IMG/VR virus record: IMGVR_UViG_2529292883_000007
Location: 1-10,506 of that record
Reading direction: 5' to 3' (one strand)
Length of the DNA stretch: 10,506 bases
Source: a virus
Lineage: Duplodnaviria; Heunggongvirae; Uroviricota; Caudoviricetes
The notes beneath the pieces are model-generated. The model searched no databases, was not told the origin of the DNA, and saw nothing but the letters and a program-made list of their open reading frames with translations. The position numbers and the translations under genes are program-made. Shown here in pieces: positions 1,439 to 9,086 of the stretch. Position 1 is the first letter of the stretch, and the number at the start of each line of letters is the position of its first letter.

Positions 1439-1864
1439 TCAATGCACCACCACGGCATTTCCCGCCGGACCACCACGATTCATCTGATTGAAACCAGCAA
1501 TCACCACCGCGACAAGTTCATCAGCGTCTCGCACCAGTCGTTCATGCGCCTCCACCAGTTCCCGAAAATAAGCGGAACTGTGGCTGCGCATCCTGGCCAC
1601 CAGCGGAGGTGGCATTGCCTTTTCGATCGCTGGTAACAACGCCTGAATTTTTTTCACCGCATCAGGAGTATCTTTCTCCACCCAGCGGAAAATTTTCTGA
1701 GTATTGCGAGCTAGGGCTTCTGGGTGTGAATCGTCGTACAGTTCCGGAAACGTCATACCCAGCTCAAAATAAGCCTGGGTTATTTCAGCCGCCGGAACTT
1801 TTTCACCGTCCGGATACGCCCAGGCATTCATCGCCATGCGGATGTGTTCATGCTTGATTTTCAT
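1439..1864 (-). CDS. ydaT: YdaT-family protein (Rac prophage YdaT-like, CII-like position)
   Basis: 141-aa ORF starting MKIKHEHI..., which I recall as the YdaT N-terminus. Its ATG (1864-1862) overlaps the stop of the upstream Cro-like gene in an ATGA arrangement, implying translational coupling. Confidence 0.6.
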   Translation of the reverse strand: MKIKHEHIRMAMNAWAYPDGEKVPAAEITQAYFELGMTFPELYDDSHPEALARNTQKIFRWVEKDTPDAVKKIQALLPAIEKAMPPPLVARMRSHSSAYFRELVEAHERLVRDADELVAVVIAGFNQMNRGGPAGNAVVVH

Positions 1865-2121
1865 GAATCAACTCCCGCCACTTGCTGTGTGTTAGCCTGA
1901 AACTCAGCAGGCAAGCCGTCGGTTGGGTTGGGATAAATATCAGGGCGAATTTCATGCGGGGTAACTTCCCAGCTCATTAGCTGACATAACGGAATTACCT
2001 GCTTTGGGGGAACGCCAAAGCTAAACCATTGCCAAACAGTCTGTTGAGCGACCCCCATATAACGACCTATTTCAGCTTGAGAGAATTTCTGCCTAATTTT
2101 TTCGCGAGTGCTATCTATCAT
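1861..2121 (-). CDS. Cro/YdaS-like helix-turn-helix regulator
   Basis: 86-aa ORF with an HTH-like segment (SQAEIGRYMGVAQQTVWQW) and a GGAGG Shine-Dalgarno upstream of the ATG at 2121-2119. It is divergent from the repressor gene and first in the leftward operon. Confidence 0.65.
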   Translation of the reverse strand: MIDSTREKIRQKFSQAEIGRYMGVAQQTVWQWFSFGVPPKQVIPLCQLMSWEVTPHEIRPDIYPNPTDGLPAEFQANTQQVAGVDS

Positions 2122-2155
2122 TTTGCCCTCCTCTAAAAACTATAGGCAAAAGACT

Positions 2156-2194
2156 ACAATAAAAAACTGTGCACGATCAACAGTTTTTTATTGT
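2156..2194. promoter_or_regulatory. Operator O1: perfect inverted repeat with 15-bp arms and a 9-bp spacer, in the divergent promoter region
   Basis: ACAATAAAAAACTGT (2156-2170), spacer gcacgatca, ACAGTTTTTTATTGT (2180-2194); the arms are exact reverse complements. On the minus strand a TTGATC -35-like hexamer overlaps the palindrome and faces the Cro-like gene. Confidence 0.55.
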
Positions 2195-2230
2195 GATGCT
2201 TTTAACAGTATTTCCCTGTAAAATTGAACG

Positions 2231-2632
2231 ATGATGAACGCCTTAGAAGTATCTATGTACAGAATCAGCAAGCTTCTCCAAGAAACAGGATGGAGCCAGG
2301 CTGAGCTTGCTCGTAGAATTGGTGTGACACAACAAACTGTTCAACAATGGGTCAGCGGTAAAGCTACACCTAAAGCCTCAAGTTTGGATAAACTGGTTGA
2401 GGTTACAGGGCATCCATTGCATTGGTTTTTATTGCCTCCTGAAGAGGGTGAGCAAATCTTCACCCCTGATACGATGAAAATTGGTCCTCGCCAACGCGAA
2501 CTGCTCCAGGCTTTTAGTGCGTTTCCAGAAGAAGACCAAGAAAAAATGCTTCAGGAAATCAAAGACAAGAAAAAATCAATGGAAGAAACCATTGCTCGAT
2601 GGTTGGCGGCGCAAAAAATCCGCCGAGCGTGA
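2231..2632 (+). CDS. XRE-family HTH repressor (PaaR-like / DicA-analogous prophage repressor)
   Basis: 133-aa ORF with an N-terminal XRE HTH (SQAELARRIGVTQQTVQQWVSG). It is divergent from the Cro-like gene and lies directly upstream of the antitoxin and ParE genes, matching the paaR-paaA-parE three-gene layout as I remember it. Confidence 0.7.
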   Translation: MMNALEVSMYRISKLLQETGWSQAELARRIGVTQQTVQQWVSGKATPKASSLDKLVEVTGHPLHWFLLPPEEGEQIFTPDTMKIGPRQRELLQAFSAFPEEDQEKMLQEIKDKKKSMEETIARWLAAQKIRRA

Positions 2633-2657
2633 CCAGTGAACAAAGAGGAGTCATGTC

Positions 2658-2849
2658 ATGAGTACAGCCCTTTCTCCGATAGTTTCAGAATTCGAAACTA
2701 CCGAACAAGAAAACAGTTACAACGAATGGTTGCGCGCTAAAGTCGCGTCAAGCTTTGCAGATCATCGCCCCGCAATACCGCATGACGAGGTGATGGCTGA
2801 AATGGAAAATCTTATTGCTCAAATTGCTGCGACTAGCGGGAGTGTGTAA
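2658..2849 (+). CDS. PaaA-type small antitoxin (ParE-associated)
   Basis: 63-aa ORF with a GAGGAG Shine-Dalgarno 7 nt upstream. Its stop codon overlaps the start of the ParE reading frame (TAATG at 2847-2851). The sequence (SPIVSEFETTEQENSYNEWLRAKVA...) resembles PaaA-type antitoxins from memory. Confidence 0.6.
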   Translation: MSTALSPIVSEFETTEQENSYNEWLRAKVASSFADHRPAIPHDEVMAEMENLIAQIAATSGSV

Positions 2850-3138
2850 TGCTACCCATTTTATGGCTACCATCTGCTCGCGATGATTTGCGTCAGATCG
2901 TAGCCTATATTGCCAAGGAAAATGTTCCACAGCAGCTCGTAGACTAAAAATACGTATTGAAACGTCTGTTTTAGCCCTCTCAGAGCATCCATATCTATAT
3001 CCGCCAAGTGATAGAGTATCCGGTTTGCGGGAAATTGTAGCTCACCCTAATTATATCGTTTTGTACCGAGTAGCAGCTTCAAGCATTGAAATTGTAAATA
3101 TTGTGCATACCCGCAGACAGTTTCCCTTCCCTGCCTGA
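2849..3138 (+). pseudogene. parE: ParE-family toxin gene disrupted by a frameshift
   Basis: The frame from ATG 2849 encodes a ParE-like N-terminus (MLPILWLPSARDDLRQIVAYIAKENVP...) and stops at TAA 2945-2947. A different frame, open from 2887 to the TGA at 3136-3138, encodes a ParE-like C-terminus (...AARRLKIRIETSVLALSEHPYLYPPSDRVSGLREIVAHPNYIVLYRVAASSIEIVNIVHTRRQFP). The switch point is near 2927-2935. Confidence 0.6.
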
Positions 3139-3156
3139 ACCGAACGATTTTCACAC

Positions 3157-3180
3157 TCCCTCATACGAGGGATTTTTTTT
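3157..3180 (+). terminator. Intrinsic terminator after the repressor-TA operon
   Basis: Stem TCCCTC (3157-3162) / GAGGGA (3167-3172) with loop ATAC, followed by 8 T (3173-3180). Confidence 0.6.
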
Positions 3181-3191
3181 GCCAAAAAACA

Positions 3192-3235
3192 ACAATTAAA
3201 AACTGTTGACACCAAACAGTTTTTAATTGTAGATT
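3192..3235 (+). promoter_or_regulatory. Operator O2 overlapping a rightward early promoter (pL analogue)
   Basis: ACAATTAAAAACTGT (3192-3206), spacer tgacaccaa, ACAGTTTTTAATTGT (3216-3230); perfect 15-bp arms, one base different from O1. A consensus -35 TTGACA (3204-3209) straddles the left arm and spacer; a -10 candidate TAGATT lies at 3230-3235 but the spacing is long, so the exact -10 is uncertain. Confidence 0.55.
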
Positions 3236-3414
3236 GTTTTCACCAGCCCACCCCGTCCCACAGAATGCAGGGCAAAACTTCGAGTTACCAGGCAGTGGTC
3301 AGGGGTTAAGTAGCCAGCCCGAGGCGTATGAACATGACGGCAGGGATCAAATTTAATAACTATGCAGCAGGTTTTTGTTCCGCTACCCCGGCGTTAAGGG
3401 GAAATGAGGTCAAC

Positions 3415-3570
3415 ATGGAAACTATCGATCTTGGCAACAACGAATCTCTGGTGTGCGGTGTGTTTCCCAACCAGGACGGAACGTTCACCGCGATGACGTA
3501 TACAAAAAGCAAAACGTTTAAAACCGAATCTGGCGCGCGTCGTTGGTTGGTAAGACATTCAGGTGAATAA
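3415..3570 (+). CDS. ydfA: YdfA-like small protein (first gene of a dicB-operon-like transcript)
   Basis: 51-aa ORF (METIDLGNNESLV...) with a GAGGT Shine-Dalgarno 5 nt upstream. Its position downstream of the repressor-controlled promoter and upstream of DicF matches the Qin ydfA-ydfB-...-dicF order. An in-frame upstream start at 3328 or 3334 would give a 78-80-aa product and cannot be excluded. Confidence 0.5.
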   Translation: METIDLGNNESLVCGVFPNQDGTFTAMTYTKSKTFKTESGARRWLVRHSGE

Positions 3571-3571
3571 A

Positions 3572-3718
3572 ATGAACGAAACAGAATTAAAACACGTTAT
3601 CGCTCTGCTTCTGGAGGATGCAAAACGCCTCCAGCAACTGGAACCAAATGCAGGCACTGAAGCCCGCATCTGGCTGGCATTGTACGCTATTGAGTCAGGT
3701 CGTGATGATGAAGGTTAA
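3572..3718 (+). CDS. ydfB: YdfB-like small protein
   Basis: 48-aa ORF (MNETELKHVIALLLEDAKRLQQLEPNAGTEARIWLALYAIESGRDDEG), absent from the ORF track because it is under 60 aa. AGGTGA Shine-Dalgarno 5 nt upstream; the ATG is 1 nt after the ydfA-like stop. Confidence 0.45.
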   Translation: MNETELKHVIALLLEDAKRLQQLEPNAGTEARIWLALYAIESGRDDEG

Positions 3719-3999
3719 GCATCATCTAAGTTTTTTACATAGCGCCCATTAGATTCGGTAACAAGAACTCCGGGATTTTTCTTAACTTTTGAGGCCACTG
3801 ATTCAGCAAGGTTAGCAACAGATTCTTTGTCTTCATTCTTGCTTGAATATGTATATTCGGCATTAGGAAGTCGGTAGGTGTTCCCTGAAGAGGTTGTAAT
3901 CGTTCTGGAGAATCCCTTTGCTTCCATTCGTTCATGAAGCTTATCGTAATCAGCGGAACTGGAATCGCGAAGTTCGATCCTGACTGTAAATTTTGCCAT
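3715..3999 (-). CDS. Hypothetical 94-aa protein, convergent to the early operon
   Basis: ATG at 3999-3997 preceded by a strong GGAGGATAAA Shine-Dalgarno (the longer track ORF starts inside this SD, so the 94-aa form is preferred). Its stop overlaps the ydfB-like stop by 4 bp (TTAA at 3715-3718). Non-repetitive, protein-like composition; family not recognised. Confidence 0.6.
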   Translation of the reverse strand: MAKFTVRIELRDSSSADYDKLHERMEAKGFSRTITTSSGNTYRLPNAEYTYSSKNEDKESVANLAESVASKVKKNPGVLVTESNGRYVKNLDDA

Positions 4000-4335
4000 T
4001 TTATCCTCCATTAAGGGCTGAATTAAAAATGGAGACCAACACGCTGCTACGTGTGGTCGTGCGCCGGACACGGATAAGAATCCGGCACTGACAGTTTACT
4101 GAAAGGATATTTCCCTGAAAAGTCAGGGCATAACACGAAAGCGTACGGCGAAGGCCTTCACCTATGAGGTTTGTCGTTAAATTTCTTCGACCGTGCGCTT
4201 CCGGTTGTGGCACTCCGCGAAATGGCGCGGTGGTAAGTATGGCGGGGTTATTCCTTCCCCCGTTGAGGACACCGGGTTGTCAGGTTGACCATACACTTAA
4301 GTGACAACCCCGCTGCAACGCCCTCTGTTATCAAT

Positions 4336-4393
4336 TTTCTGGTGACGTTTGGCGGTATCAGTTTTACTCCGTGACTGCTCTGCCGCCCTTTTT
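4336..4393 (+). ncRNA. dicF: DicF small RNA (ftsZ-targeting prophage sRNA) with its 3' terminator hairpin
   Basis: TTTCTGGTGACGTTTGGCGGTATCAGTTTTACTCCGTGACTGCTCTGCCGCCC followed by TTTTT matches my recollection of the DicF sequence. It ends in a GGCGG...CCGCC hairpin plus a U-run, and lies downstream of ydfA/ydfB-like genes as in Qin. Confidence 0.7.
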
Positions 4394-4801: not shown

Positions 4802-5035
4802 ATGAAAATAGAAACTATCAGCTACATCAAGAAAAACGCAGCCTCACTGGACCTGGCTGAACCAATTCTTGTCACGCAGAATGGTGTTCCTGCATACGTA
4901 ATTGAATCCTATGAGCAGCAACAGGAACGCGAGAATGCTATTGCGTTACTGAAACTTCTCACTATTTCAGAAAGTGACAGGTCTGAAGGCCGCGTGTTTT
5001 CAAAAGAACAGTTGCTGGATAGCTTTAACAAGTAA
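4802..5035 (+). CDS. Phd/YefM-family antitoxin
   Basis: 77-aa ORF (MKIETISYIKKNAASLDLAEPILVTQNGVPAYVIESYEQQQERENAIALLKLL...) with the Phd/YefM pattern. The toxin ORF follows 8 nt after its stop. Confidence 0.7.
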   Translation: MKIETISYIKKNAASLDLAEPILVTQNGVPAYVIESYEQQQERENAIALLKLLTISESDRSEGRVFSKEQLLDSFNK

Positions 5036-5043
5036 GGTTGACG

Positions 5044-5364
5044 ATGCAGATTGAATACACGCTTACCGCCAGAACAAGCCTTGAGCAAATTGCCGACCAT
5101 CTCCGGAGTAACGACATTGACCCACTCCCTGTAATAGAAGAAATTCTTGAACGATTTGAAACAAGAGTTACGGCATTCCCGTCCGGATGCCAGTTATGCC
5201 CGGAGTTGCTCAAACTTGGCGTGGCGAAATATAGAGAATGCAACACACCAGAAGGTTACAGAGTGCTGTACTCTGTAGAAGGGGATGTTATCACTGCACA
5301 CGCGGTTCTTTCCCAACGTCAGGATATTAAACAGTTACTGTTCAGGCGACTGATTAGAGCTTAG
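5044..5364 (+). CDS. RelE/ParE-superfamily toxin (putative)
   Basis: 106-aa ORF from ATG 5044 (the track begins at an in-frame TTG at 5038), with AAGG 6 nt upstream. ParE/RelE-like pattern (conserved N-terminal helix, and YRVLYSVEGDVITAHAVL near the C-terminus). Lies directly downstream of the Phd/YefM antitoxin. Confidence 0.55.
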   Translation: MQIEYTLTARTSLEQIADHLRSNDIDPLPVIEEILERFETRVTAFPSGCQLCPELLKLGVAKYRECNTPEGYRVLYSVEGDVITAHAVLSQRQDIKQLLFRRLIRA

Positions 5365-5455: not shown

Positions 5456-5510
5456 TTGTCCGCACCTCATAAAACGGGTGCCGGGCGTGGAAACCCGATG
5501 TTCACTAACG

Positions 5511-5543
5511 CGCATAACCGCGCTCAGGCGGTTTTTTTATGCG
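5511..5543 (+). terminator. Terminator/attenuator hairpin within the rha leader
   Basis: Inner stem CCGC (5518-5521) / GCGG (5528-5531) with loop GCTCAG, followed by 7 T (5532-5538). An outer stem CGCATAA (5511-5517) / TTATGCG (5537-5543) could alternatively sequester part of the U-run. It sits about 55-80 nt downstream of the predicted start. Confidence 0.45.
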
Positions 5544-5707
5544 TAATGCACAGCCACATTCAGATTATGGTGGGACGTGCAGGGCAGCCGCAAGGCTGGC
5601 CGGGTTCGTTAGTGACCGGTATTTCCACCCCTGTACGTCTCACCACCCTTATGGTCGTGGAAAACCTTGGTGGTGAGTTAATCAAATTCACTAACGAGGC
5701 TGCTATC

Positions 5708-6262
5708 ATGGCTACTATCCCTACCCTTTCTCACCCTGACGTAACCATCAAAAATGGTCGCGCTGTCACTACGTCTGTTGCGGTTGCAGAGTTCTTCCGC
5801 AAAATGCACAAGGACGTTTTGCGCAAAATTGAAACGCTAGAATGCTCTGAAGATTTTAACGAGCGCAATTTTACGCCCGTTACCTACACCGACGCCAAAG
5901 GCGAAAAACGACCAATGTACCAAATCACCAAAAACGGCTTCGTTTTCCTGGTGATGGGGTTCACCGGCAAAAAAGCCGCAGCTTTCAAGGAAGCCTACAT
6001 CGCTGAATTCGATCGCATGGAGGCAGAGTTGTACCAGCTTAATACCACTACCACAGACAAAATAATTCCTGGTGATGGTCGCACTCTCGTTGTTCACTTC
6101 GACGAACGCGGCAATATCAAATTCACCGAAACCGTTCCTGACGGCGCTCTCGTCTGTACTCTGGATACTTTCCGCTTTTATCTGGAGAAGCAGGGGTGGA
6201 CTCTTGTAAACAGGAGCGCAATTAAAAATATGACCGTCGAGCAGTTGCTGAGTATTAAATAG
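5708..6262 (+). CDS. rha: Rha-family phage regulatory protein
   Basis: 184-aa ORF from ATG 5708 with a GAGG Shine-Dalgarno 8 nt upstream. The N-terminus (KNGRAVTTSVAVAEFFRKMHKDVLRKIETL...YQITKNGFVFLVMGFTGKKAAAFKEAYIAEFDRME) matches the Rha domain pattern. The track's longer 268-aa ORF starts at a TTG inside the promoter -10 and is not preferred. Confidence 0.7.
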   Translation: MATIPTLSHPDVTIKNGRAVTTSVAVAEFFRKMHKDVLRKIETLECSEDFNERNFTPVTYTDAKGEKRPMYQITKNGFVFLVMGFTGKKAAAFKEAYIAEFDRMEAELYQLNTTTTDKIIPGDGRTLVVHFDERGNIKFTETVPDGALVCTLDTFRFYLEKQGWTLVNRSAIKNMTVEQLLSIK

Positions 6263-6647: not shown

Positions 6648-9086
6648 TTGATGAGCACGAATAAAGAACTGTTTGCGCTATATTGCGAAGCTAAAAATGA
6701 CAAGGTCAGAAAGCGTCTCGGTATTAAAGGTGGCTTTTTCTGGATCGAAGCCAAAAAACTTTCCGTTGCAGTTTCCCGCTGTATTGCCGCTATGGACGAT
6801 GCTGGCTACGACGAAGATGATTTCAAAAAAACAGTTCGCGTCCATTTGCCTGTTGTAAATGACCTGCCACCTGAAGGCGTATTTGATACTGATTTCTGTA
6901 ACCGTTACGAAAAAGGTGGAGAAGATGGCATCACAATGATGCCGGTACCGTCCAGCAACAGCGATGAAAACAGTAACGCCGCTAATACTAACGTCAACGG
7001 CGAAGACATGACTGAGATTGAGGAGAATATGCTTCTGCCGGTTTCAGGTCAGCTTCTGCCTGTTAGATGGCTGGCACAGCACGGCAGCGAAAAACCTGTC
7101 ACGCATGTTTCACGGGATGAACTGCGGGCATTACATAACGCACAGGAAGAAAAACTTCCCGCCGTTACCGCTCTGGCCATCTCAAATAAAGCAGTGCAAC
7201 TCGAACCGCTGGAGATTCGGGATTTGTACAAACTGGTGCGGGACACTGACAAAGTTTTTCCCGCCCCCGTAAATTCAGACCTGGGACTGATGACTTCCTT
7301 CATCGAAGCATACCTGGACGCTGACTACACCAATCGCGGTCTGCTTACAAAAGAGTGGATGAAAGGAAATCATGTTTCGCGAATCAGCCGCACACCATCC
7401 GGCGCTAACGCTGGCGGCGGTATTCTTACCGATCGCGGCGAAGGTTTTGTACACGATGATGCATCACTGGCGCGCGACGTAGCCACTGGCGTGCTGGCCC
7501 GTTCAATGGACGTGGACATTTATAACCTTCATCCGGCACACGCTAAACGCGTCGAGGAAATTATCGCTGAAAATAAACCGCCCTTTTCTGTTTTCTTCAG
7601 CAAATTCATCACCATGCCGGGCCACAAGGATTTCTCCCGTGCCATCGTGGTTGCCTCCGTGAAAGAAGCACCAGTTGGTATAGAGGCTATGCCCCACCGT
7701 GTCACCGAATACCTGAATAAGGTGCTGACTGAAACCGATCATGCCAACCCTGATCCGGAAATCGTGGATATTGCCTGCGGTCGCTCCTCTGCCCCGATGC
7801 CGCAGCGTGTAACGGAAAAAGAAAAACATGATGAAGAAAAACCGCAACCATCTGGCGCAATGGCAGATGAACAGGCAACGGCTGAAACAGTGGAACCGGA
7901 TGCAACTGAACATCATCCGGACACGCAGCCGGTGGATGCTCAGCCACAGGTGAATTCTGTTGATGCGAAATATCAGAAACTGCGGGCAGAACTCCATGAA
8001 GCCAGGAAAAACATTTCGCCTAAAAATCCTGTCGACGCAAACAAATTACTGGCCGCCTCTCGCGGAGAATTTGTTGAAGGGATTAGTGACCCGAATGATC
8101 CGAAATGGGTTAAGGGGCACCAGACTCGCGAGTCTTCGAACCAGAATCAACCAGAAGTGGAACAAACCAGGTCAGAATCGGGACAAAATAGCCAGGATGC
8201 ACACCAAAATGAACCAAAAACGATACATCCGGAGCCAGCAGCGCAACATGCACAGAAAAATCCCTGTAATGTTTGTGGGGAAACTGGCGGGGGCACATGC
8301 CCTGACTGTGCCTCAGTAATGGGTGACGCAACTTACCATGAGACATTCTGCGAGGAAGATTCAGATGAATCTCAGGAAAAAGCTCCGGAGGAGATGGAAA
8401 ACCCTGAACATCCGCATCCGGAAAATACTGACAGCAATCAGCATAACAATAGCGGTGATAAAACTGACAGGACGACAAATTCCTTAATTAATATGTACGG
8501 TTATAAGAAAAGAACATCCACCAGCAGAATGTGTCACCATCTGATGATCGACCTTGAAACAATGGGAAAAAATCCTGATTCCCCGATTATCTCAATAGGT
8601 GCAATATTTTTCGATCCGCAAACCGGAGAGATGGGACCAGAATTTAATAAAACCATCGATCTGGAAACTGCTGGCGGAGTCATTGATCGGGACGCGATCA
8701 AGTGGTGGCTGAAGCAATCACGCGAAGCGCAATCTGCCATTCTGACCGATGAAATCCCGTTAGATGATGCACTGCTGCAATTGCGGGAATTTATCGCCGA
8801 AAACTCCGGTGAATTGTTTGTTCAGGTCTGGGGAAATGGAGCCAACTTCGACAACGTGATTTTGCGCCGTTCATATGAACGGCAGGGTATCCCCTGCCCG
8901 TGGCGCTACTACAACGATCGCGATGTACGCACAATCATTGAACTGGGAAAATCCATAGACTTCGATGCCAGGACGCCTATTCAATTCGAAGGCATACGCC
9001 ACAATGCGCTGGATGATGCCCGTCACCAGGCGAAATACGTTTCAGCAATCTGGCAAAAACTGATCCCGAATCAGTCTGATTTTTAA
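6648..9086 (+). CDS. Large prophage exonuclease: RecE-like N-terminal/central region fused to a C-terminal DEDDh (DnaQ/RNase T-like) 3'-5' exonuclease domain
   Basis: 812-aa ORF with GAGG 8 nt upstream. The C-terminal domain has the three DEDDh motifs: Exo I MIDLETMG, Exo [14 protein letters not shown], Exo [15 protein letters not shown] CxxC-x7-CxxC motif ([15 protein letters not shown]) and an acidic, Pro/Gln/Glu-rich low-complexity segment lie between the N-terminal region and the nuclease domain. It occupies the exo/recE position upstream of xis-int. Confidence 0.75.

Follow-up and report, generated by a model that had tools for sequence, protein, structure and literature searches.

The genetic switch of CP-933P, composed of PaaR2, YdaS and YdaT and equipped with both OR and OL, was described by Jurenas et al. 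2021 (PMC8630535). PaaR2 and YdaS both bind the intergenic region, as seen by EMSA and in DNase I footprints, and each of them represses PR933P, PRM933P and PL933P, with an approximately 100-fold effect at PL (PMC8630535). The paaR2 mRNA of CP-933P was found to be leaderless by 5' RACE (PMC8630535). The operators of phage 434 are 14 bp in length, with the reference form ACAAT-N4-ATTGT and a preference for an A-rich centre (PMC1636474), and a class of short repressors without an autocleavage domain, known as the DicA/GfoR/GtgR type, has also been described (PMC3121763, PMC10448788).

Here we describe an immunity region in a window of 10,506 nucleotides, which is the whole stretch of DNA that was analysed and which covers the left arm of a lambdoid prophage of the Rac/Qin/CP-933P type together with its immunity region. 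Two palindromes of 39 bp are found in this region, and it is very probable, on the analogy of the known systems, that they represent OR and OL of a cryptic lambdoid prophage switch of the Rac/Qin/CP-933P type, built of 15-bp units. The switch itself is most likely of the ordinary kind, whereas the sequence and specificity of its operators are most likely previously undescribed. We present the anatomy of these sequences, their conservation, their covariation with the recognition helix, and their positional homology to the validated promoters of CP-933P.

Gene context and the two regulators

The gene layout is that of CP-933P and of Qin dicA/dicC/dicBp. On the minus strand lie a YdaT-like (CII-like) protein of 141 aa (1439..1864; Pfam YdaT_toxin, PF06254, E = 3.5e-10), which is 81% identical to CP-933P YdaT, and a Cro-like regulator of the YdaS family of 86 aa (1861..2121; Pfam YdaS_toxin, PF15943, E = 2.5e-10) with the recognition helix AQQTVWQW. 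The divergent repressor of 133 aa (2231..2632, plus strand) consists of an N-terminal HTH_3 domain with the recognition helix TQQTVQQW and a PaaR2/DicA-like C-terminal part. It is followed on the same strand by a PaaA-type antitoxin gene of 63 aa (2658..2849; Pfam PaaA2, E = 1.8e-19; 71% identical to PaaA2) that is cotranscribed with the repressor, and by a parE-type toxin gene (2849..3137) inactivated by a 2-bp insertion near 2928, a frameshift that shows when the gene is aligned to the intact copy in E. coli A8 and translated in three frames. The repressor operon ends at an intrinsic terminator (3157..3180, plus strand; stem TCCCTC/GAGGGA, then T8) that immediately precedes the second palindrome, and terminator-like stems occupy the same column in the alignment of relatives. 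Past the terminator come a PL-like promoter, ydfA and DicF, and farther along recE, xis and int. The PL-like operon opens with a ydfA homologue (DUF1391; 3415..3570, plus strand; Pfam E = 2e-28) that is 90% identical to K-12 YdfA.

The repressor matches only HTH families in Pfam (HTH_3, E = 1.7e-13), and no S24 peptidase domain was found in the 133-aa protein by the same search. Its best solved relative in phmmer is the 434 repressor (E = 2e-5), with TQQTVQQ aligned to TQQSIEQ. The similarity to PaaR2 amounts to 42% identity and is limited to the C-terminal 98 aa (E = 9e-20), while DicA is matched over the full length (28% identity over 111 aa, E = 4e-12). With its N-terminal HTH, lack of a cleavage domain and similarity to DicA, the 133-aa repressor fits the DicA/GfoR class. 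Over the HTH, recognition helix included, the Cro-like protein and the repressor are 44% identical (E = 1e-8).

Palindromes, putative operator units and promoters

Palindrome 1 (2156-2194) is formed by the arms ACAATAAAAAACTGT (2156-2170) and ACAGTTTTTTATTGT (2180-2194) around the spacer GCACGATCA, and palindrome 2 (3192-3230) by the arms ACAATTAAAAACTGT (3192-3206) and ACAGTTTTTAATTGT (3216-3230) around the spacer TGACACCAA; the distance from OR to OL is 1036 bp. Direct reading and a repeat search bear out the original prediction that each site is a perfect inverted repeat in which 15-bp arms enclose a 9-bp spacer, and direct reading confirms that the arms of the two palindromes differ at a single position, which is mirrored in both arms. 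One -35 hexamer lies inside each spacer, as had been claimed: TTGATC on the minus strand at site 1 and TTGACA on the plus strand at site 2. The half-site with W at the variable position has four exact matches in the window and one more at no more than three mismatches, whereas shuffled sequences gave a mean of 0.96 and a count of five was reached in 0/200 shuffles.

When folded as single-stranded hairpins the palindromes reach -12.8 and -14.0 kcal/mol (z = -5.6 and -6.0), and folding as good as this was seen in 0/200 shuffles. The palindromes could accordingly be imagined to act as nucleic-acid structures, either RNA hairpins and terminators or DNA cruciforms, as both single strands fold far better than shuffled sequence (z about -6), a scan lists 3192-3230 as terminator-like on both strands, and site 2 follows the repressor operon. 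However, a canonical GC-rich terminator with T8 is already present at 3157-3180, the stems of the palindromes are almost pure A/T (3 GC pairs among 16), and the palindromes would precede the transcription starts provided that the -35 hexamers are genuine. Relatives with a repressor 82-92% identical do not keep the long hairpin (z = +1.4 for OL of locus L042, while in locus L043 each unit folds separately), compensatory changes between arms are absent, and no Rfam family matched at the palindromes. We consider this explanation extremely improbable, and a terminator-like RNA, which the original prediction had itself raised as the alternative, is rejected on the grounds that close relatives do not preserve the pairing and that a canonical terminator stands just upstream.

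A comparison of about 55 related loci from nine lineages places the operators at a smaller scale. The conserved unit among these loci is a 15-bp pseudo-dyad, ACA(A/G)(T/G)-N5-(A/C/T)(C/T)TGT, which takes the form ACAAT-A5-ACTGT in this window, and every palindrome arm is one such pseudo-dyad. The original prediction had regarded each site as one operator with 15-bp arms and a 9-bp spacer, and this part is not supported, as the arms are themselves pseudo-dyads, like the 14-bp 434 operators. The search of related prophages that it had suggested for conservation of the palindrome finds that the 15-bp unit is kept and the 39-bp palindrome is not: the units of a pair in relatives frequently depart from inverted symmetry, and the spacer between them measures 8, 9 or 10 bp. 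From the pseudo-dyad arms, the non-inverted pairs and the variable spacer, the 39-bp palindrome is read as two adjacent operators placed 24 bp centre to centre. Some single units are perfect 7+1+7 palindromes (ACAGTAAATTACTGT and ACAAGATGATCTTGT), and dyad matches of at least 6/7 occur in random 15-mers with P = 0.002. In total there are three units at OR and two at OL.

The OR units (2156-2219) lie between the start of the cro-like gene (2121) and that of the repressor (2231) and overlap the candidate -35 and -10 elements. O_R1 (2156..2170) fills the spacer between the PR-like -35 and -10, and at one end it shares a base with the -10, namely the first of that hexamer; it is invariant in 20 distinct E. 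coli-type OR sequences, and nine lineages have it at -75 relative to the repressor ATG. O_R2 (2180..2194) is directly upstream of the PR -35, with which it has one base in common, and it borders on the region where the -35 of the repressor promoter is expected. The PR-like -35 (TTGATC, 2175..2180, minus strand) sits inside the 9-bp spacer of palindrome 1 and reads TTGATC, TTGATT or TTGACC in relatives, while the remainder of the spacer varies freely. For the PR-like -10 we propose TAGTCT (2151..2156, minus strand), 18 bp from the -35, from a geometry that is the same as at site 2; relatives carry TAGTCT, TAGGCT or TAATCT. TAGTCT is a weak -10, which matches the consensus at 3/6 positions and falls under the threshold of the promoter scan, so that the promoter at site 1 rests on geometry and comparison and not on the scan.

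A third, weaker unit, O_R3 (2205..2219, ACAGTATTTCCCTGT), fits the unit pattern and overlaps the spacer and the first -10 base of the repressor (PRM-like) promoter. The original prediction was right in placing two sites at the early promoters, but it overlooked this unit at the repressor's own promoter. The E. coli type, L043, L044, Pluralibacter, P0083 and Serratia all have O_R3 at -26 relative to the ATG; in Arsenophonus it occupies the equivalent place, and the Morganella copy is degenerate. The left half-site of O_R3 has changed to ACAAG in L044 jointly with the other units, and 1/15 of its columns is variable among E. coli relatives. The repressor -10 (TAAAAT, 2219..2224, plus strand) is followed by 6 nt and the ATG at 2231, and this arrangement without a Shine-Dalgarno sequence is kept in all lineages, as in CP-933P (GATAAT-TACCAC-ATG); the lack of a Shine-Dalgarno sequence at the repressor start would imply a leaderless mRNA.

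At OL, O_L2 (3192..3206) is located upstream of the PL-like -35 with one base in common, and O_L1 (3216..3230) lies between the -35 and the -10. The PL-like promoter (3206..3235, plus strand) consists of TTGACA (3206-3211), a spacing of 18 bp and TAGATT (3230-3235); with a match of 10/12 it is the sole promoter-like site from a scan of 1800-3700, and it is directed rightward, toward ydfA-like, DicF, recE, xis and int. Site 2 can be aligned with PL933P, a promoter validated by experiment. In the alignment of four immunity types TTGAC never varies, and the sequences become near-identical again about 10 bp past the PL -10. Within the E. coli lineage the paired operators are exact mirror images around the -35 hexamer.

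One may still ask whether the 39-bp palindrome is a single composite operator for one symmetric repressor tetramer or octamer that reads the two 15-bp arms as its halves, with the -35 at the dyad centre. The perfect arms at both sites in this lineage and the inter-site difference mirrored in both arms would be consistent with this, as would the OR units being inverted in E. coli, L043, L044 and Morganella and the octameric state in solution reported for PaaR2 (PMC8630535). On the other hand, the OL units are direct and non-complementary in L042, L043 and L044, OL of L042 gives no hairpin or palindrome signal (z = +1.4), and the spacer length varies among 8, 9 and 10 bp in relatives. Single units are dyad-symmetric, some of them perfectly, and a lone third unit is present at PRM. 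We therefore regard a single composite operator as quite unlikely and retain the reading of adjacent 15-bp operators; nevertheless the OR units are inverted in most lineages, which means that pair-level symmetry beyond two independent dimers may matter.

Conservation, covariation and a proposed mechanism

Among 20 distinct E. coli-type OR sequences, only 1/45 columns is variable in the operators versus 30/65 elsewhere in the intergenic region (Fisher p = 7e-8), and spacer positions 1-5 of palindrome 1 are highly variable. For this last patch (2171-2175) we considered a hypermutable hairpin loop, as it shows 10 haplotypes in 39 sequences with mostly transitions. Its variability exceeds the 95th percentile, yet it is not the most variable 5-bp window, and no sequence pairs were found with at least two differences in 2171-2175 but at most two in the ±300 bp flanks; judged from these sequences, the patch is treated as probably unconstrained DNA.

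Across lineages the units follow the recognition helix. The helix [T/A/S]QQT[V/I]QQW occurs together with three-plus-two units at -75, -51 and -26 from the ATG in nine lineages (E. coli, L043, L044-46, Arsenophonus, Morganella, Pluralibacter, Serratia, P0083 and L042), so that the same unit type goes with the same helix, while other helices and other sites are found in the L047 type and in CP-933P. The L047 type has the helix AQQSVQKW and the operator CACTTTTAAAGTT at equivalent positions. In Serratia the inner half-sites deviate (GCAGT, ACTGT) despite a nearly identical helix, which indicates that the half-site rules are looser than stated. The reading of the sites as repressor operators, made in the original prediction, thus gains from their promoter positions, their invariance, their co-occurrence with the helix and their replacement in heteroimmune relatives, but it does not extend to a single long-armed operator at each site.

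This covariation also bears on whether the units are bound by another protein, such as the YdaT/CII-like protein, a PaaA-ParE complex or a host nucleoid protein. The A5-A6 tracts in the units are typical targets of bending proteins, and classical toxin-antitoxin operons are autoregulated by the antitoxin. However, changes in the units track the helices of repressor and Cro and not the host genus, and operator pairs persist without paaA-parE in L032 and L035. PaaA matches only the PaaA2 stability-determinant family and no DNA-binding family in Pfam. The recognition site of YdaT is TTGATT-N6-AATCAA (PMC9986795), and a perfect YdaT site is located elsewhere in the window (1854-1871). Binding by such a protein in place of the repressor appears very improbable.

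The 1.6-kb immunity segment (1800-3400) is at least 80% covered in 509/5,426 complete E. coli genomes. Salmonella, Klebsiella/Raoultella, Serratia, Morganella, Pluralibacter and Arsenophonus carry related forms; a scan of species-representative genomes returned one distant locus only, from Arsenophonus. No named phage with this immunity region was found by blastn, in which only cro-like gene fragments matched, or by tblastn, which gave no match of at least 60% identity and placed Gifsy-1 and Gifsy-2 at 33%. Phage phi467, with an HTH 53% identical, was tried as a comparator and is uninformative because its recognition helix is different (SAQSVQYW) and it is without ACA-N9-TGT sites. A full-text literature search for the four arm sequences retrieved an unrelated primer match only. 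Two further unit-like matches in the window, at 7946 (by pattern) and 6658 (3 mismatches), fall within recE or at its beginning and are regarded as chance occurrences, about 0.5 being expected by chance.

For the units described here, binding, stoichiometry, cooperativity, activation and looping are inferred by analogy, and the following scenario should be read in this manner. Dimers of the 133-aa PaaR/DicA-type repressor would occupy each unit via the 434-like helix TQQTVQQW, and neighbouring dimers would cooperate across the 24 bp from centre to centre. PR and PL would then be shut off by occlusion of RNA polymerase. The weak repressor promoter may be stimulated by repressor at O_R2 and would be shut off through O_R3 at high occupancy. 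The YdaS-type Cro-like protein, with its helix AQQTVWQW, would bind the same units with a different preference and a bistable switch would result. There is a small chance that a PaaR-type higher oligomer instead clamps both 15-bp sites as one composite element on the -35 in a distinct binding mode, which the mirror-image pairs of the E. coli lineage would then reflect; such a dyad-symmetric oligomer might in addition link OR with OL over the intervening 1 kb. A composite clamp, if true, would mean that a non-cleavable repressor has arrived at a new structural answer to 434-type recognition, reading half-sites one base pair further apart than those of 434.

Comparison with known switches

The finding leaves the understanding of such switches unchanged. 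It does assign concrete, testable operator sequences and a promoter geometry to this immunity type, whose switch would control a toxin-antitoxin module and, via the PL-like promoter, genes that affect the host, DicF among them. The locus also provides a clean natural case of modular specificity swapping on one PaaR/DicA-type repressor scaffold, which carries a 434-like helix and operators here and unrelated helices and operators in CP-933P and the L047 type.

With CP-933P the locus shares the order of ydaT, ydaS, divergent repressor, paaA-parE and PL-like promoter, the presence of operators at both PR/PRM and PL, the position of PL, and the geometry from -10 to ATG at the repressor promoter. 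It differs in that the repressor HTH (residues 1-36) does not align, nor does the Cro-like protein, YdaS giving no BLASTP match, and in that parE is frameshifted in this window. The operators of CP-933P are four 18-bp inverted repeats with the half-site GTTTAGTAA, as opposed to the 15-bp ACAAT-N5-ACTGT units. This prophage and CP-933P would therefore be expected to be heteroimmune.

The repressor here has the Q-Q-x-x-x-Q recognition helix of 434, with its base-contacting Gln residues. The outer half-site ACAAT is identical and one half-site of each unit is ACAG; the centre of the unit is A-rich and non-conserved, and repressor and Cro share a recognition helix in both systems. The units here are 15 bp and not the 14-bp ACAA-N6-TTGT, as can be seen in 434 OR3 (ACAAGAAAAACTGT), which is one base shorter, and the contact geometry of 434 is therefore not exactly transferable. 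Moreover, the repressor here lacks the RecA-cleavable S24 domain and has a PaaR/DicA-like C-terminal domain instead, and the Cro-like protein is a member of the YdaS family, not a homologue of 434 Cro.

The Qin DicA/DicC/dicBp system resembles the locus in having DicF downstream and two dyad sites flanking the -35 of dicBp, but the DicA sites (TGTTAG-N6-CTAACA) are unlike the present units; in the DicA/GfoR systems a small antirepressor is known (Rem, GfoA). As in lambda, OR consists of three dyad operators about 24-25 bp centre to centre over divergent PR and PRM, a second operator set is placed at PL past the repressor operon, and the repressor mRNA is leaderless, as is predicted here. The lambda operators are 17 bp long and of unrelated sequence, its repressor has a different architecture, and its OL holds three units where the OL described here holds two.

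Gene order around the repressor

The window is the immunity region and left arm of a cryptic lambdoid prophage. On the minus strand lie an O-like replication gene containing iterons, a YdaT-family gene (1439-1864) and a YdaS-family Cro-like gene (1861-2121), while the plus strand encodes a 133-aa HTH repressor (2231-2632), a PaaA-type antitoxin (2658-2849) and a ParE-type toxin whose gene (2849-3137) is disrupted by a 2-bp insertion. A canonical terminator (3157-3180, plus strand) precedes the second of two palindromes (site 2), beyond which the same strand carries a ydfA homologue (90% identical to K-12 YdfA), DicF, a second Phd/ParE pair, isrK and C4 RNAs and a Rha/Ash gene, and further along recE, xis and int. 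Of 5,426 complete E. coli genomes, 509 cover at least 80% of the 1.6-kb segment from ydaS to site 2, the best match being 98.3% identical.

Several side features accompany this gene order. Compared with E. coli A8, where this gene is intact, the first toxin gene has a CA insertion near 2928-2929 that cuts ParE short after about 31 residues; neither the antitoxin gene nor the repressor gene is disrupted, and in strain A8 it is the ydaS-like gene, not parE, that is annotated as frameshifted. The second toxin-antitoxin pair (4802-5364), within the PL-like operon, consists of a Phd/YefM-type antitoxin (77 aa) and a ParE-type toxin (108 aa). DicF sRNA, isrK and C4 antisense RNA match Rfam above the gathering score (4337-4388, 5462-5538 and 5563-5650, respectively); DicF is downstream of the PL-like promoter, and isrK and C4 are directly upstream of or overlap the start of the Rha/Ash-domain gene (5456-6262), an arrangement reminiscent of both the isrK-anrP module of Gifsy-1 and the c4-ant module of P1. 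Within the O-like gene a 23-bp repeat (CATCGGGCCATTTTGACCCGATG and variants) occurs four times (958-1073); every copy is internally palindromic, and the four are probably origin iterons like those of lambda ori. A 118-aa ORF (3715-4071, minus strand), antisense to the PL-like operon, matches the GhoS family of endoribonuclease antitoxins weakly and just at threshold (E = 3e-4).

Palindromes, probable operator units and promoters

Site 1 at the rightward operator region OR (ACAATAAAAAACTGT, GCACGATCA, ACAGTTTTTTATTGT; 2156-2194) and site 2 at the leftward region OL (ACAATTAAAAACTGT, TGACACCAA, ACAGTTTTTAATTGT; 3192-3230), both read from the sequence, are perfect inverted repeats with 15-bp arms; coordinates and the single arm difference between the sites were re-read and are exactly as the original prediction described them, and the difference is mirrored in both arms. 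Both are far beyond chance expectation; the arm half-site has four exact copies and one more at up to 3 mismatches, none of 200 shuffles attains these five matches, and hairpin folding gives z of about -6 against shuffles. The predicted -35-like hexamers were also located, each 18 bp from a candidate -10. A promoter scan of 1800-3700 returned the PL-like promoter (TTGACA-18 bp-TAGATT, plus strand, -35 at 3206-3211) as its sole promoter-like site; the PR-like promoter (TTGATC-18 bp-TAGTCT, minus strand, -35 from 2180 to 2175, -10 from 2156 to 2151) was placed by geometry and comparison, and has identical spacing but a -10 that is sub-threshold in the scan.

Each palindrome had been taken as a single operator with 15-bp arms and a 9-bp spacer, and here the related loci (49 from IMG/VR, one from Arsenophonus, and four further ones from Morganella, Pluralibacter, Serratia and an unassigned metagenomic read-set assembly, Logan protein P0083) call for a correction. 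Repressors with the helix [T/A/S]QQT[V/I]QQW always have three upstream 15-bp units of the form ACA(A/G)(T/G)-N5-(A/C/T)(C/T)TGT, which begin at -75, -51 and -26 relative to the repressor ATG and are separated by 9 bp (8 in one case) and 10 bp; past the repressor operon the same lineages have a unit pair flanking a TTGAC hexamer. The third unit of the window, ACAGTATTTCCCTGT at 2205-2219, had been missed. Pair members often lack inverted symmetry with one another; the OL pair of locus L042 (ACAGTTATTTATTGT / ACAGTTTTTACTTGT) and those of L043 and L044 are in direct orientation, with an 8-bp spacer in L044, and the long hairpin is lost (z = +1.4 at L042 OL, while the L043 units fold separately). 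What relatives conserve is thus the 15-bp unit and not the 39-bp palindrome. Individual units have dyad symmetry of their own, ACAGTAAATTACTGT (L043) and ACAAGATGATCTTGT (Arsenophonus) being perfect 7+1+7 palindromes; at least 6 of 7 dyad matches arise in random 15-mers of local composition with P = 0.002. Because the units are themselves dyads and the pairs often not inverted copies, the 39-bp palindrome is best read as a lineage-specific arrangement of two adjacent operators with centres 24 bp apart, which removes the oddity of long arms and a 9-bp spacer.

It is quite improbable that each palindrome is instead one composite operator read by a single symmetric oligomer: OL pairs occur in direct orientation, the spacer length is variable and a solitary third unit exists, even though the inverted orientation at OR is kept in most lineages and PaaR2 of the prophage CP-933P octamerises (PMC8630535). 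Action as RNA or DNA structure is unlikely as well, since relatives do not preserve the pairing, the stems consist largely of A/T, the operon already has a terminator elsewhere and no Rfam family matches at the sites. Retention of the operators in loci without paaA-parE argues against binding by the toxin-antitoxin complex, which is likewise unlikely. Two such loci from IMG/VR (L032 and L035, repressor 98% identical) have the OL pair directly after the repressor gene, at +608 from its ATG, so that paaA-parE behaves as an optional insert between repressor and PL.

Over 20 distinct E. coli-type OR sequences, variation affects 1 of 45 operator columns and 30 of the 65 remaining intergenic ones (Fisher p = 7e-8). 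Within the 9-bp spacer, positions 1-5 rank among the most variable, whereas the final bases, belonging to the -35, are kept. At OL a few variants break the perfect pair symmetry but retain the outer ACA/TGT triplets of each unit. The OR spacer patch 2171-2175 shows 10 haplotypes in 39 close relatives; almost all the differences are transitions, and they fit decay from GCGCG. Its variability is above the 95th percentile of 5-bp windows without being the maximum, and it is probably just unconstrained promoter-spacer DNA. In the Serratia locus L057 (about 1925-1965) O_R1 and O_R2 have symmetrically altered inner half-sites (GCAGT ... ACTGT) and the spacer-crossing region is a perfect 8+1+8 palindrome, CAGTTGATAATCAACTG, with a nearly unchanged repressor helix.

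At PR and PL the last T of the upstream unit is the first base of the -35 and the last T of the downstream unit the first base of the -10, so O_R1 (2156-2170) and O_L1 (3216-3230) would fill the promoter spacer and O_R2 (2180-2194) and O_L2 (3192-3206) would abut the -35. The last base of O_R3 (2205-2219) is the first T of TAAAAT (2219-2224), and exactly 6 nt separate this hexamer from the repressor ATG; this spacing is kept in every lineage and in CP-933P, and no Shine-Dalgarno sequence precedes the repressor ATG, which together fit a leaderless repressor mRNA. The putative repressor promoter has a poor -35 region adjoining O_R2, an arrangement in which lambda CI activates PRM. In CP-933P, paaR2 is leaderless, PRM933P is reportedly activated at low PaaR2 levels, and the -35 and -10 of PL933P are identical to those of PR933P (PMC8630535). 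The PR -10 (TAGTCT, TAGGCT or TAATCT in relatives) resembles TAAACT, the hexamer read in both CP-933P promoters.

Recognition helices and operator type

The best solved-structure match of the repressor is the phage 434 repressor (E = 2e-5), with TQQTVQQ aligned to TQQSIEQ; in 434 co-crystal structures the base-contacting residues are Gln28, Gln29 and Gln33. Window units share the ACAAT half-site of 434 operators, have an A5-A6 centre and are one base pair longer. The 14-bp 434 operators conserve the outer 4+4 bases around a non-contacted centre for which A-rich sequence is preferred, the standard synthetic reference being ACAAT-N4-ATTGT (PMC1636474). The Cro-like protein (helix AQQTVWQW) is 44% identical to the repressor over the HTH. 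This parallels the 434 repressor and Cro, which share their helix and thereby read the same sites. The window repressor thus appears to read DNA as the 434 repressor does, while not belonging to the 434 system, from which it differs in operator length, C-terminal domain and Cro-like family.

Helices and operator type covary in the sequences compared, so this control works. The L047-type repressor (67% identical overall) has the helix AQQSVQKW and its Cro-like protein PQQVVSRW, with CACTTTTAAAGTT-type sites at the same OR and OL positions, and CP-933P has yet another operator set (PMC8630535). Since a domain-family search of the protein found no S24 cleavage domain and DicA of Qin is 28% identical over the whole length (E = 4e-12), the repressor falls into the short non-cleavable prophage class (GfoR, GtgR, DicA, RacR), several members of which are controlled by antirepressors (PMC3121763; PMC10448788). 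Two dyad sites (TGTTAG-N6-CTAACA) likewise flank the -35 of Qin dicBp.

Comparison with CP-933P

Organisation is the same in CP-933P of E. coli O157:H7, where PaaR2 and YdaS bind a 97-bp intergenic region and each represses PR933P as well as PRM933P; either protein also represses, about 100-fold, a third promoter, PL933P, which carries similar operators and lies immediately past parE2 (Jurenas et al., PMC8630535). CP-933P YdaT and PaaA are 81% and 71% identical to those of the window, whereas the repressors align only over the C-terminal 98 residues (42% identical) with the HTH not alignable, YdaS has no detectable similarity to the window's Cro-like protein, and the operators (half-site GTTTAGTAA) are unrelated to the window units. 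YdaT of CP-933P acts in a CII-like manner (PMC8630535), and binding of the units by YdaT is unlikely, since its published site TTGATT-N6-AATCAA occurs perfectly elsewhere. This match (TTGATTTTCATGAATCAA, 1854-1871) straddles the ydaS stop and ydaT start and may be a PRE-like site for establishing repressor synthesis.

When the post-parE region was aligned for four immunity types, the -35 TTGAC was invariant at one column, with terminator-like stems upstream, and near-identical sequence (CCCACCCCG.CCCACAGAA...) resumed about 10 bp past the -10, which puts site 2 at the position taken by PL933P, an experimentally validated operator-promoter. Only the operator patch diverges, the pattern expected of heteroimmune lambdoid phages. 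This position, together with selection on the units and helix covariation, leaves the functional part of the original prediction, repressor operators at both early promoters, largely right, whereas its structural part is corrected; binding and regulatory steps at OR and OL of the window we infer by analogy. No named phage in the searched collection has this immunity region, and a full-text literature search found these operator sequences in no paper. The switch itself is of a known kind, experimentally characterised in a close relative; what is new is the immunity specificity, which adds operators absent from the searched literature to this well-known type.
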